Shown: positions 15,001 through 21,000 of the stretch, in pieces
Position numbering within the stretch: the stretch's first letter is position 1
Layout of the letters: the number at the start of each line of letters is the position of its first letter
DNA from: a virus
Taxonomy: Duplodnaviria; Heunggongvirae; Uroviricota; Caudoviricetes
Reading direction: 5' to 3' (one strand)
IMG/VR virus record: IMGVR_UViG_648028025_000004
Length of the DNA stretch: 53,480 nucleotides
Position numbers: made by a program

Positions 15001-18000
15001 CGTTACTGCGGCGCAGTTCACGATTTTCACGTTCCAGCTCTTTCAGACGCTGACGTTCAGCACTGGTGAGCCCACCATCACCGCCCCCGGTATCCCGCTC
15101 ATGCTGGCGAACCCAGACACGCAGAGTCTCCGGCGTACAGCCAATCTTTGGGGCAATGGAACAAATTGCCGCCCACTGTGAGTCATATTCATCCTGACTT
15201 TCCAGAACCATACGAATCGCCCGCTGACGGACTTCGGGGGAAAAACGAGTATTTTTAGTCATCCTGTTTACCTCTTTCTCAGGGAGTTTAGTCTCCAGGA
15301 TTTCCGGGGCGGTTCACACCACGCAGTTCGTCAGGCAAAGAGAAAGGCCAATATGACATACATGAAGGCGTATCAAAAAGCATGGAAAGAACACCGCGAT
15401 CGATACCAACAAGACATGGAAAAGCTTGAATCAGAAAACATGGAATTAAGACGAAAGCTCGGTGAAGCAAAACGAGACATTGATGCTTACAAGCGACTTT
15501 TTAATGGTGAAAGCCATGCTTAGCCCATCCCAATCCCTTCAATACCAGAAAGAAAGCGTCGAGCGAGCTTTAACGTGCGCTAACTGCGGTCAGAAGCTGC
15601 ATGTGCTGGAAGTTCACGTGTGTGAGTACTGCTGCGCAGAACTGATGAGCGATCCGAATAGCTCAATGTACGAGGAAGAAGACGATGAATGAGTTAATAA
15701 ATGGCAATGCCATCAAAATGACAAGCATTGAAATAGCTGAGTTGGTGGGTAAGCGTCATGACAATGTGAAACGTACCATCGAAACGCTGGCTAAAAATGG
15801 TGTTATCCGGCTTCCTCAAATTGAGGTTTCCGAAAGAATCAATAACTTAGGGTTCAATGTTCAGTACGAGCATTACGTCTTCGAGGGCGAACAAGGTAAG
15901 CGAGACAGTATTGTCGTTGTTGCCCAGTTGTCGCCAGAGTTCACCGCTCGTCTTGTTGACCGTTGGCGAGAGCTTGAAGAAACTGCGGTTAATATCCCCA
16001 AAACGTTACCGGAAGCGTTGCGCCTTGCTGCTGATCTTGCTGAGCAGAAAATGCAACTGGAAAACCAGCTCGCAATTGCCGCACCTAAAGTTGAGTTTGC
16101 CGATCGCGTTGGCGAGGCCAGCGGAATTTTGATTGGAAACTTTGCAAAGGTTGTTGGTATTGGTCCAAACAAACTGTTTGCGTGGATGCGCGATCACAAA
16201 ATCCTTATTGCTTCAGGTTCCCGGCGCAATGTGCCAATGCAGGAATATATGGATCGCGGCTATTTCACAGTGAAAGAAACAGCGGTCAACACAAATCACG
16301 GAATACAGATATCGTTCACCACAAAAATCACCGGGCGTGGTCAACAGTGGCTGACCAGAAAGCTGCTCGATAACGGAATGCTGAAAGTAACAGGGGAGGC
16401 TGCTTAATGGCTAACCTACGCAAAGAATCTCGCGGCAGAGAATGCCAGGTACGTATTTACGGCATATGCAATGGCAATCCTGAAACTACAGTTCTGGCAC
16501 ATTACCGGATGGCTGGAATTTGCGGAACGGGAATGAAGCCTGACGACCTGATCGGCGCATGGGCTTGTAGCGCGTGTCACGATGAAATCGACCGACGCAC
16601 CCATAACCTCGACAACAAAGACGCCAGACTTTACCACCTCGAAGGCGTGATCAGGACGCAGGCGATACTGCTGAAGGAGGGGAAGATTAAGTCATGAACG
16701 AATATCAGTTTGTGCTTCCATACCCGCCGTCGGTGAATACCTACTGGCGAAGACGGGGAAGCCAATACTACATCAGCGATAAAGGCCAGAAATACCGAAA
16801 AGACGTTCAGCAAATCATCCACCAACTCAAGTTAGATATTTTCACCAAATCACGACTCCGCATCAAAGTAATCGCAGACGTTCCAGACTCCCGCCGCCGC
16901 GACCTAGATAACATCCTGAAGGGTTTACTCGACTCCCTTATCCATGCCGGATTTGCGGAAGACGACGAGCAATTCGATGACATTCGCGTAATTCGTGGTG
17001 TGAAAGTACCAGGCGGACGGCTTGGAATAAAAATCACCGAACTGGAGAACGCATGAACGCCACAATTCAAACGATACCAGAGCTTCTTATCCAGACACGA
17101 GGCAATCAGACCGAAGTGGCGAGGATGCTTTCCTGCGCAAGAGGAACAGTGCTCAAGTACAACCGAGACAGCAAAGGCGAGCGTCATGTAATAGTTAACG
17201 GCGTCCTGATGGTCAAACAGGGCAAGAGGGGAAGACGATGAGACTCGAAAGCGTAGCTAAATTTCATTCGCCAAAAAGCCCGATGATGAGCGACTCACTA
17301 CTGGCCACAGTTTATTGGTTTTCGTAACTGAGTCATTTTATTATTTTATTGCAACTTTTAATCTTTTATAGTGCGAAATAAATGGAGCTGGCATTCATTT
17401 CGCACTTTATGTTTTTGTTGGACTTATGTTATTTTGATTGAATTCAATTCAGTTAAAAAAAGAAGGTGATTGCTCCATTTATAAATGAATAGTCATCCCC
17501 TGTCTTGAATTCTGATGTTACTTTATTAAATGCTAGTGTGAAGGCTACAGGTGCATACCCAATTGTTGCGCCAACTTGATATTCATCAACAGTTTTGTTT
17601 AGCGATACTGTTGTTTGTTTCGTCTGTATTGTTTTTCCTTCGAGAGTATAGTTGCGATTGACATCTCGTCTTTCCATACCTGCAAAAATCTTGTATTTGA
17701 ATCCGCTTGTATCGGACATATGCATTAAACCACGGGGAGCCAGCAGACCAAAGCCATTATCCGAATTGAAGGTTTTATCATTACCAATGGCAATGGTTGC
17801 GCCATATGCTACATATTGAAATAAGTTTCCAGTAACAGCAGAAACTTCAGGGTATAATCCAACATTAGCACCTAAAATATCCATACTTGGTGTCATGGAT
17901 AGCATCCCTTTTACAGTATAACCGTAGCGATTCTCTATTTGATCATCCCATGCATGATATTTTTCTGCCCCAATAATCTCATGAGCTTTATTTTGTACTT

Positions 18001-21000
18001 TCTGACCGCCTGCGTCGGGGCCAACAACACCTATGTCAGTACCTAATCGATAGCGAATCCAGTCATTCGCAAGGGAGTTCCATTCAATACCAGTGTGAGT
18101 GTATGCACTAAAAGCTCTGTCTCCAGTTACAGCTGTGTTGTGTCTTTTATTACTGCCTGATGGAGAGTAAATATCTTGCGCAATATGGAGAGATAATTGG
18201 CTCGAGTCTGAGATATCGTGGCTATATCCCAGAAATAAGCCTTGTGAGTAATCATCTCTGTTTTCATGTTTATTGCCATAAATATCATTAAGTATTGGTT
18301 GAAACTTCCCTGCATCATCATTTGCTAATGATAATGCAAGGCTGTTCGCGATAGCTGAACACGTGGTAAATGACAGAGCAATAAAGACGCCAGCGATGAC
18401 ACTTTTTTTCATATGTTATTGTCTTCCTTTTTTTTGAATGGTGCGCGTATTTTACATACATGAGTTTGTAATACAAGGTGCGTAATCAATATGATGTTTT
18501 ATAATTGCGTGAGACAATTGATTTATTCGTTTTTTATTGCGGTTTTTATTATCTTTTAATGTAACGGTGTTTTTATTAAGTGTGTTTGCGTGGTGTTTTA
18601 TGTTTTTTATAATTTTTATTTTATTAAATTTAAAAGCATTAGTAATGGCTATTCTATATAGCAATATAAGAACTGTTACAAAAAAAGGGGGGGCAATTAC
18701 AGGTAGTTATGGATGATGAGTGAAACAGATATTGGAGAACCGGGGAATGAATGATGTCTGAGTCTTATATATCAGAACTCCTTCGCTGTCGCTGGGGGCT
18801 CCTGTGCTTATGTCGTTTCCCCGATTCGGTTTTGAACGATTACCGAATGTTGAAGAATTATGCCAAAATATAGAAAGGATTTACTGCATGAATACCCAAT
18901 ATTTACAGTATGTTCGTGAGCAACTTATGGCAGCTACTGCTGACTTGAACGGAGCAACGAAAGGCCAGCTCGAAGCCTGGCAGGAGCATGCACAATTTGA
19001 TACTGGTACATACAAACGAAAGAAGCCGCGCATTCTGGATGTGGTAACTGGCAAGATGATTACGCTGGATAATACGCCGACTTCCGGTAAGCAGTCGTAC
19101 GCAAAAGGTTCATCCATTGCTTTGGTCAGCCCGGTTGAATTCTCAACCTCTTCATGGCGCCGCGCGGTTTTGTCTCTCGATGAACATCAGAAAGCATGGT
19201 TGCTTTGGTGTTACAGCGAAAGCGTTCGATGGGGGCATCAGGTCACCATAACGCAATGGGCATGGAGCGAGTTTAAAGATTTGTTAAGTAACAGAAAAAT
19301 TGCAGGTAAGACACTGGATCGCCTGAAGACGTTAATCTGGCTGGCTGCACAGGATGTGAAGAGCGAACTTGCAGGGCGTGAGGCCTATGAATACCAGACA
19401 CTGGCATCATTGGTGGGAGTGACAACAAAAAACTGGTCCGAGACATTTACTGAACGCTGGGTTGCAATGAAGCACATTTTTCTACAGCTTGATAGTGATG
19501 CTTTATTGCTTGTGACGAGAACACGTTCAAAACAAAAGGCAGCATTTTTACAGCAAAATATTGCAAAACTGGATTAAAAGCCATATACTTCATGCAAATT
19601 TGGTATGTTGTAAAAAATGTATAAACCCGCTGCCGAGTGGGTTTTTTTTATGCCCTGAGTTGTACTTGTACGGTAAACATGCTGGCTGCTATGTAATAGA
19701 GTTTTTTTAGCCTGTAACCTCTTGACGGCATTGAATTGCTTTTGTTATGAGTTGTAAGCCAATGTTATCATCTTGTATTGGGGTGGTTATGAAGGATGGT
19801 GCGCTGCTCAGGAGTTCTTCACTTTTTATTGCCTACATGGGATGCCTTGGATGGGGGAGTGCTTATTTCTATGGATGGGGTACTTCTTTTTACTACGGCT
19901 TCCCATGGTGGATTGTAGGTGCAGGTGTTGATGATGTTGCCAGAAGTTTATTTTTTGCAGTTATCGTCATTGCTATATTTCTTATCGGTTGGGGTATTGG
20001 TGTTGTATTCTTTTTCGCAGTGAAAAGAAAACATTCTATGCAAGAGCTAAATGTATTTCGCCTTTATTTTGCTGTGGAATTATTGTTTGTGCCGGCAATT
20101 ATTGAGTTTTCTATATTGAGACAGAAGATTCAGGTACCTCTTTTGCTACTGTCAGCAGCGATTGCGCTGGCGGTTACAATTTCGATAAGATCTTATGGGC
20201 GATTTTTATCGGTATCATGCTTCTATGATAAGCCATTTATAAAAAAACATTTTTTTGAGATTGTGATGATTGCTTTTGTGGCATATTTTTGGCTTTTTTC
20301 ATTTCTGACAGGATATTACAAACCACAGTTTAAGAAAGAATATGAAATGATTAATTATAATGATGGTTGGTATTATGTTCTTGCTCGTTATGATAATTGT
20401 CTGGTTTTGTCTACTTCTTTCAATGCAGGTAGTAAAAGGTTTGTCATTTATCAATCAGCACAAGATAAGAATCTTCAGGTTGATATTGTAAGGACCAGAA
20501 TTTAATTGGCTGCATAAATAATATTTTAAGTTGCAAGTTGGCTATTCGTAGGAATAGAACCTTAGGCATGCTGAATGCGTTTTCTGAACATTGTTTTATA
20601 AACTGTGTCTGCTTGCTGTTGTGATCCTGCTTTTAGTGATGGTGATGATGGATTTCACCAGCAGGATAATGTTGGTACTGACTGATGGCGCTCTGGTCTG
20701 CGGCATTGTGGTATTGCTGTGGCCGATGATGAAAGAACAGAATGAATAATTCTTGACTTTTTTGTTTACTGTTTATTAAAAAATCAACCGCATGGTGAAT
20801 CCTCCTTGGAGGGGCTAAATGATCGAGTTTTAAGGGCACGTAGCGAGTTCTGTTTGATCATTGCAGAACTTAGCGGGAGGCGCCATGCGTACATCACTAG
20901 TGTTATTCCTTTTATCATTTTCCTTGTGAGTTCTGGCTGCGCATTGCGCAGCCTTTTTTTTATGACCTGCCACTGGCAGATGGTCATCCTGTGATTTGAT

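Follow-up and report, generated by a model that had tools for sequence, protein, structure and literature searches.

Background

Lipid A deacylases of the LpxR family have been described in Salmonella Typhimurium, in Yersinia enterocolitica and in enterohaemorrhagic Escherichia coli (EHEC). The present work concerns an lpxR gene in a phage-derived stretch of 53,480 nt, the IMG/VR record IMGVR_UViG_648028025_000004, the whole of which is referred to here as the window. An original prediction, made by inspection of the letters of this stretch, had proposed an LpxR-like outer-membrane protein gene as a cargo island between the phage genes ninH and Q.

For the EHEC gene, the accounts of Ogawa et al. 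2018 given in PMC6393859 and PMC6863877 report 3'-O-deacylase activity, with phagocytosis and TLR4/NF-κB signalling lowered, and a need for Pch and Ler. Ler activates the gene (Z0955/ECs0814) 5-fold (PMC3891560), and it is co-regulated with the LEE (locus of enterocyte effacement), both falling in yhaO and yhaJ mutants (PMC4699771). The association of lpxR with the LEE extends across bovine and human E. coli (PMC6724679), the gene was scored as conserved in every strain of EHEC test sets (PMC2323221), and the protein has been proposed as a vaccine antigen (PMC6863877). The active site of the EHEC and Salmonella enzymes has been listed as Asn9, Asp10, Thr/Ser34, Gln118, His122 and Glu128 (PMC6863877). 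In the Yersinia enzyme, which also has Ser34, deacylation is abolished by the substitutions N9A, D10A, S34A, Q118A and H122A (PMC3486919). The moron concept for lambdoid phages, which is applied to the locus below, is taken from an extract of PMC3594210.

Results and discussion

Family, fold and active site of the encoded protein

With a probability of about 0.95, the gene in the window is lpxR, carried as a moron between the nin region and Q of a now defective lambda-like prophage that lies beside ybhC in the chromosome of an E. coli of the O26 EHEC type. The present analysis covered the family membership, fold and active-site residues of the protein, its identity to ECs_0814 and to the gene of phage 434, the limits of the island and the distribution of the gene. 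LpxR (PF09982) is the top and sole Pfam family for the open reading frame (ORF), at 137.4 bits against a cut-off of 26 (E 6.8e-40) and over profile positions 2-320 of 323. Only one PDB sequence was matched, that of Salmonella LpxR (3FID; E 3.6e-153), residues 24-319 pairing with 2-296. An AlphaFold model built with 15 homologues (predicted local distance difference test score, pLDDT, 74.8) fits 3FID with a template modelling (TM) score of 0.96 when target-normalised and 0.89 when query-normalised, at a root mean square deviation of 1.7 Å over 296 columns of 74% identity. The next structural matches are unrelated barrels with TM below 0.5. Profile search, structure search and the model of a 12-stranded barrel all favour the LpxR-type identity that had been proposed.

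All six of the published active-site residues are kept. They are N31, D32, S56, Q140, H144 and E150 of the precursor, which correspond to N9, D10, S34, Q118, H122 and E128 of the mature protein, and they include the conserved catalytic His (H144 = His122) and Asn (N31 = Asn9) expected of such an enzyme. N31, D32, Q140 and H144 are invariant among the 15 homologues, down to 51% identity. It is extremely improbable that the product is a porin- or adhesin-like 'systemic factor' with no enzymatic role, following an old SfpA-like annotation, or an inactive relic. No porin or adhesin family was matched in Pfam, the frame is intact with every catalytic residue present, and the fold fits LpxR and not other barrels. 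In 619 genomes the coding sequence (CDS) is kept at an identity of 99% or more, and deacylase activity has already been reported for the identical protein in the accounts cited above. Neither of the two outcomes named in the original prediction as refuting it was seen, the top match being to no porin or adhesin and the active-site residues being in place.

The frame, taken from the ORF listing of the window, begins with ATG and ends in ITFFF, the FFF being an aromatic end typical of outer-membrane barrels. Its N-terminus, MKKSVIAGVFIALSFTTCSAIA, was judged by eye to resemble a signal peptide, with an AxA motif (A-I-A) at its end and cleavage before N23. This putative cleavage site agrees with the 22-residue numbering offset of the 3FID crystal structure. 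The KilAC antirepressor gene, ybcO, rusA, ninH, ylcG and Q are all on the + strand, opposite to lpxR. The original description of a 319-residue, signal-peptide-bearing product ending in Phe, encoded against the direction of all surrounding phage genes, therefore stands. The coordinates of these and other features are collected in Table 1.

Table 1. Features of the lpxR locus and its surroundings (positions are those of the window)
Feature	Position	Strand	Basis or comment
IS3-family element, 1311 bp	14006-15316		
ALIL frameshifting pseudoknot	14865-14981	-	Rfam, 121.5 bits
KilAC antirepressor gene	15685-16407	+	Pfam
ybcO	16407-16697	+	Pfam
rusA	16694-17056	+	Pfam
ninH	17053-17241	+	Pfam
Remnant of lambda-type Q gene, 24 codons	17238-17309	+	First ~20 codons intact (MRLESVAKFHSPKSPMMSDS...), then homology lost; stop at 17310-17312
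AT-rich spacer, 21.7% GC	17310-17369	.	Q remnant to lpxR 3' hairpin; common to the cdt-linked 85% variant, not to the 80-83% variants
Hairpin, 15-bp stem	17370-17406	-	46 nt past the lpxR stop codon
A-tract on the 5' side of the hairpin	17407-17422	-	T-tract on the + strand
lpxR CDS	17453-18412	-	319 aa; predicted 12-stranded outer-membrane beta-barrel lipid A 3'-O-deacylase by profile, structure and homologue matches
Site of possible MicF pairing	18311-18322	-	lpxR +91 to +102; codons for A30-N31-D32-D33
lpxR signal peptide, residues 1-22	18347-18412	-	Putative, by sequence inspection
Shine-Dalgarno-like GGAAG	18423-18427	-	10 nt upstream of the ATG; ribosome-binding site at the same place in the phage 434 record
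Promoter-like TTGTAT-16 nt-TAAAAT	18449-18476	-	Weak -35, good -10; implies a 5' untranslated region of ~30 nt
AT-rich upstream region, 27.4% GC	18479-18737	.	Only in the phage-borne version of the cassette; without homology in other lpxR contexts
ylcG	18754-18873	+	Small gene ahead of Q in phage 82/DLP12-type late-regulation modules; PGAP and phage 434 annotation
Q antiterminator, phage 82 type, 229 aa	18888-19577	+	Pfam PF06323, E 1.7e-91; PGAP and phage 434 annotation
Promoter-like TTGCAA-17-TATACT	19561-19589	+	Directly after Q
Weak STnc240-like match	19561-19653	+	E 0.61; terminator at the same place in the phage 434 record
Strong terminator-like hairpin with T-run	19623-19644		
AT-rich gene, 252-aa multi-pass membrane protein	19747-20505	+	No Pfam family; common to Sakai Sp3 and phage 434
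DUF3927/'TciB' small membrane protein gene	20591-20749	+	Common to Sakai Sp3 and phage 434
STnc100-like match	20760-20964	+	Full length, sub-threshold: 41.4 bits (gathering score 47), E 1.8e-6
SASA-family carbohydrate (sialate O-acetyl) esterase gene	21048-22912	+	With DUF6645 domain; split in two ORFs
lom	43520-44119		
nleH	45775-46656		
cif	46880-47707		
DUF1076 (NleG-like) gene	51353-51928		
espJ	52827-53480		

Identity to known genes and distribution

The protein has the same sequence (100% identity) as ECs_0814 of E. coli O157:H7 Sakai, which is annotated as 'lpxR, lipid A 3'-O-deacylase' and lies in the lambda-like prophage Sp3 beside ybhC. It is likewise 100% identical to LpxR of phage 434 (OL657226, CPT_434_65). 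A 2-kb region around the gene is 100% identical in many EHEC O26 chromosomes, in which the Prokaryotic Genome Annotation Pipeline (PGAP) uses the product name 'lipid A deacylase LpxR family protein'. Among the 5426 complete E. coli genomes of the collection searched, 619 carry the CDS at an identity of at least 99%, including strains of O157:H7, O26, O145, O103 and O111. A protein scan of genome contigs found a sole locus, in a Citrobacter sp. (73% identity), and the taxonomic spread of LpxR was taken from the protein search. The gene is already named, annotated and reported as functionally characterised, and it is common in EHEC and enteropathogenic E. coli (EPEC); it is not new.

Other versions of lpxR are found in a variety of contexts. 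In Salmonella the gene, encoding a 72% identical protein, is in a chromosomal islet beside thrS-infC-rpmI-rplT-pheS. An E. coli variant with an 85% identical protein (contigs L005 and L006) is 1.8 kb from cdtABC and beside an insertion sequence (IS), an 80% variant is beside an AraC-like gene and IS debris, and a plasmid copy with 83% identical DNA (L012; the 101-kb pJNE23-001_1, NZ_AP045065.1) has an M91 zinc metallopeptidase gene close by, among IS debris. Diverged alleles of lpxR are carried along with further virulence cargo. The cdt-linked 85% variant shares the 3' flank of the window gene up to and into the phage Q remnant, while outside the conserved elements the other variants are unrelated.

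Base composition and limits of the island

In the nin genes the GC content is approximately 49%; it falls to 28% on either side of lpxR and is 39% within the ORF, against a mean of 50% for the window. When set against all stretches of equal length in the 53-kb sequence, the left flank (17310-17452, 28.0% GC) has a value reached by just 0.8% of them and the right flank (18413-18737, 28.3% GC) by 0.09%, and the island as a whole (17310-18737, 35.7% GC) is lower than 99.98%. The lowest-GC 300-nt stretch in the entire 53 kb is at 18400-18699. The strongly AT-rich flanks that had been described around the gene are thus confirmed.

In the phages HK620, HK633 and mEp, which lack lpxR, ninH and Q are adjacent and homology to the window ends at 17308. 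In phage 82 and in many phages of the lambda-like kind, rusA, ylcG and Q follow one another, and homology to the window resumes at approximately 18737-18742. These two breaks indicate that the inserted DNA is 17310-18737, about 1.43 kb. The original prediction of a cargo island between ninH and Q was correct as to the island itself, but its limits of 17242 and 18803 are corrected here to 17310 and 18737. The segment 17242-17309 is the Q-gene remnant and not cargo, and ylcG is the right-hand neighbour of the island, again not cargo. The start of Q, which had been placed at a GTG at 18804, is instead the ATG at 18888. The Pfam match to Q begins only at residue 32 of the long ORF, and PGAP and the phage 434 record agree on this ATG.

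The remnant is labelled by PGAP as 'antitermination protein, incomplete' and in the phage 434 record as 'antiterminator-like protein, N-terminal fragment of lambda Q'. It shows where the left recombination junction of a module made of lpxR, ylcG and Q lies. From 17228 to at least 20600 the window is 99.6-99.8% identical to Sakai Sp3, to O157 strain PV15-279 and to phage 434, yet the nin genes to the left in those genomes differ from those of the window. This suggests that the Q remnant, lpxR, ylcG and Q behave as a single recombination module. Like a moron, lpxR stands between two genes that are neighbours in related phages, and its base composition is unlike that of the surrounding phage genome.

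Putative promoter, 3' hairpin and antisense position

A promoter-like element upstream of the gene is kept in the 80%, 83% and 85% variants, in which the sequence further upstream is unrelated, and BLAST homology to the diverged variants stops at 18429-18458. From its sequence and conservation, this TTGTAT-16-TAAAAT element is likely to be the promoter of the lpxR cassette. The AT-rich region beyond it is, from its composition, a candidate platform for silencing by H-NS and, given the activation by Ler known from the literature, for de-silencing by Ler and Pch. Small ORFs within this region (70 aa on the - strand and 59 aa on the + strand) were rejected as genes; low-complexity products are expected at 27% GC, and neither is annotated by PGAP or in the hand-curated 434 record.

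At the other end of the gene, the hairpin has a fold energy of -20.3 kcal/mol (z = -3.6), with none of 200 shuffled sequences folding as well. Its stems are invariant and its loop is variable across the 80-85% identical lpxR variants in their unrelated contexts. It is probably the 3' end of the lpxR transcript, acting as a terminator or as a 3' stabiliser. There is no U-tract following the hairpin on the lpxR strand. The A-tract that lies on its 5' side is a T-tract on the + strand, where the hairpin resembles a canonical intrinsic terminator directed against early rightward transcription.

The position of lpxR antisense between the PR-driven nin genes and Q raises the idea that the cassette may interact with the early-to-late switch of the phage, although this is unlikely. 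The terminator-like structure on the + strand (stem plus TTTATGTTTTTG), just upstream of the antisense lpxR body, could protect the gene against rightward read-through in the lysogen and could make Q dependent on N antitermination, and strong Ler/Pch-driven transcription of lpxR could collide with transcription bound for Q. If so, expression of lpxR in the virulence state and expression of the late genes would be mutually exclusive.

The small RNA MicF has been reported to repress lpxR in Salmonella. The 5' end of MicF can pair with AAUGAUGAUGCA in the window gene, at the codons A-N-D-D-A around the catalytic N-D-D, and this complementarity is kept in Salmonella lpxR and in all of the E. coli variants. 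The duplex energy for the window lpxR is no better than that of 13% of shuffled seeds, and the pairing is a lead only. In a search of Rfam at the gathering threshold there was nothing inside the island, and the only match in the window was the IS3 ALIL pseudoknot.

Proposed function and alternatives

The enzymatic activity, the effect on TLR4 and the control by Ler and Pch are taken from published papers. On this basis, the 319-residue precursor would be exported by the Sec pathway through its 22-residue signal peptide and, once inserted in the outer membrane, would form a 12-stranded beta-barrel ending in Phe. The mature protein would hydrolyse the ester that joins the 3'-acyloxyacyl group to lipid A, removing two fatty acids, by a mechanism like that of phospholipase A2, in which His122 would activate water and Asn9, Asp10 and Ser34 would hold a Ca2+ ion polarising the scissile carbonyl. 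Hexa-acylated lipid A would in this way become tetra-acylated, with weaker stimulation of TLR4/MD-2 and less inflammation and phagocytosis during attaching-effacing colonisation. Transcribed on its own, in the opposite orientation and within very AT-rich DNA, the gene would probably be kept silent by H-NS, and Ler and Pch would probably switch it on together with the LEE type III secretion genes.

Several points weigh against this picture. In 17000-19800 there is no excess of consensus promoter-like and terminator-like sites over shuffled sequence, and the consensus scan flagged neither the promoter-like element nor the hairpin. NCBIfam gave no match to the protein, which is uninformative as the library is without an LpxR model that recognises it. 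Latency of LpxR is known from Salmonella and, at 21 °C, from Yersinia (PMC6260217, PMC3486919), so that the presence of the gene is no guarantee of deacylated lipid A under a given condition.

A genuine LpxR that is mostly latent is possible, if doubtful, as an account of the window protein. In this case Asp31 would bar lipid A modified with 4-aminoarabinose, the enzyme would be active only when that modification is low, and a part of its effect might be non-catalytic, as with flhDC and rovA in Yersinia. The precursor has D53 and S56, equivalent to D31 and S34 of the mature protein, as in Yersinia LpxR, whereas Salmonella has Gly31. By analogy with the Yersinia enzyme, the window protein may thus be latent on aminoarabinose-modified lipid A. 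In Yersinia, D31 blocks action on aminoarabinose-lipid A and D31G relieves the latency, while the N9A and S34A proteins, though catalytically dead, are still able to restore expression of flhDC and rovA (PMC3486919); the activity of Salmonella LpxR is also low (PMC6260217). On the other hand, the identical EHEC protein is reported, in the accounts of Ogawa et al. 2018 cited above, to deacylate lipid A in vivo upon induction by Ler and Pch. The D31 effect has been demonstrated in Yersinia only, and latency would refine the identification as an lpxR moron rather than replace it.

The presence of an identical lpxR at the same place in phage 434, a viable phage isolated from sewage in the 1950s, bears on a further idea, namely that the gene serves the phage and not host virulence. 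A change in the membrane of the lysogen, through vesicle release or receptor presentation, could cut superinfection or aid phage release, and this would explain an lpxR gene in a laboratory phage that grows on K-12-type E. coli hosts. In Salmonella, the deacylation of lipid A by PagL sets off the formation of vesicles, according to an extract of PMC4958258. This explanation is nevertheless quite improbable. There is no link between LpxR and phage resistance or release in the data, and the gene shows a strong association with LEE-positive pathotypes as well as control by Ler and Pch. It has also stayed intact while IS insertions and frameshifts cost the prophage its replication and head genes, which argues for a benefit to the host. 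The intact state of lpxR alongside lom, nleH, cif, an NleG-like gene and espJ in the same defective prophage fits selection for such a benefit.

Carrier prophage and surroundings

The carrier prophage is defective: IS600, an IS3-family element and ISEc22 have inserted into it, one replication gene is frameshifted and a head protease gene is truncated. Its right arm, with lom, the type III effector genes nleH and cif, the DUF1076 gene and espJ, is 100% identical to that of the O26 strain RM8426. Another IS66-family element lies between these right-arm cargo genes, and several other low-GC patches of the window coincide with the genes themselves. The IS3-family element to the left of the nin region is approximately 4.6 kb from the site of the identical element in the otherwise identical RM8426. 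This suggests an origin of the window in another O26-type isolate, one in which the IS has moved.

Directly after Q, the promoter-like element followed by a terminator-like hairpin is, from its sequence, likely to be the late promoter with the short terminated leader RNA on which Q acts (19561-19653). In Stx phages the stx genes are located downstream of Q, a position that in the window is taken by the two membrane protein genes. The esterase gene is frameshifted according to PGAP and is intact in phage 434. Just upstream of it is the STnc100-like match. A 2026 preprint describes the EPEC small RNAs PasD1 and PasD2 as structural relatives of STnc100, found within 10 kb of Q and LpxR genes and upstream of an esterase gene, and the match in the window is probably a copy of PasD. 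A PasD small RNA inside the lpxR island itself was considered and rejected, the match being outside it.

Significance

LpxR lowers the endotoxic activity of lipid A and thereby helps EHEC and EPEC to avoid TLR4-driven inflammation, and lpxR is a conserved marker of LEE-positive pathotypes. The result from the window confirms that an O26-type prophage carries the standard lpxR allele, and the function of the identical protein has already been published. What is added is anatomical only: the exact limits of the island, the Q remnant showing that the lpxR-ylcG-Q module moves between nin regions, and the conserved promoter-like element and hairpin. The sole point with some novelty is a possible coupling of lpxR to the N/Q cascade of the phage through antisense placement and a strand-asymmetric hairpin, and this is unlikely.

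Comparison with known systems

One of the closest known systems is ECs_0814 in Sakai (Z0955 in O-island 36 of EDL933). As in the window, the Q remnant is followed by lpxR, ylcG, Q and a membrane-protein gene, with 99.7% identity of this block from 17228 to at least 20600, and both prophages lie beside ybhC. The left-hand neighbours differ, being ninG and a Ser/Thr phosphatase gene in Sakai and O157 PV15-279 and the KilAC antirepressor gene, ybcO, rusA and ninH in the window, and the IS content of Sp3 also differs from that of the window prophage. Phage 434 has the identical protein, DNA that is 99.6% identical, the same lambda Q remnant, ylcG and an 82-type Q. However, phage 434 is viable, whereas the prophage of the window has decayed, with IS600, IS3 and ISEc22 inserted in it and with frameshifts in its replication and esterase genes.

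LpxR of Salmonella Typhimurium (3FID) is alike in family, length and fold, with approximately 74% identity, and N9, D10, Q118, H122 and E128 are identical. Its gene is not phage-borne; it occupies a chromosomal islet flanked by the thrS-pheS cluster and a DUF481 gene, has a different 3' hairpin and shows no flank homology detectable against the window. Salmonella LpxR has Gly31 and Thr34, as against Asp31 and Ser34 in the window protein. The Yersinia enterocolitica protein, at approximately 69% identity, shares Asp31 and Ser34, and its mutagenesis defines essential residues that are also present in the window protein. In contrast to the EHEC gene, Yersinia lpxR is chromosomal and is regulated by temperature, RovA and PhoPQ rather than by Ler and Pch (PMC3486919).

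The lambdoid morons, such as lom and bor of lambda and stx downstream of Q, resemble lpxR in being extra, compositionally distinct and separately oriented genes between genes that are adjacent in relatives, expressed from the prophage and of benefit to the lysogen. Unlike these, lpxR has a promoter and a terminator that are as yet putative. It also differs in being upstream of Q and on the opposite strand, so that early rightward transcription must cross the antisense lpxR to reach Q.

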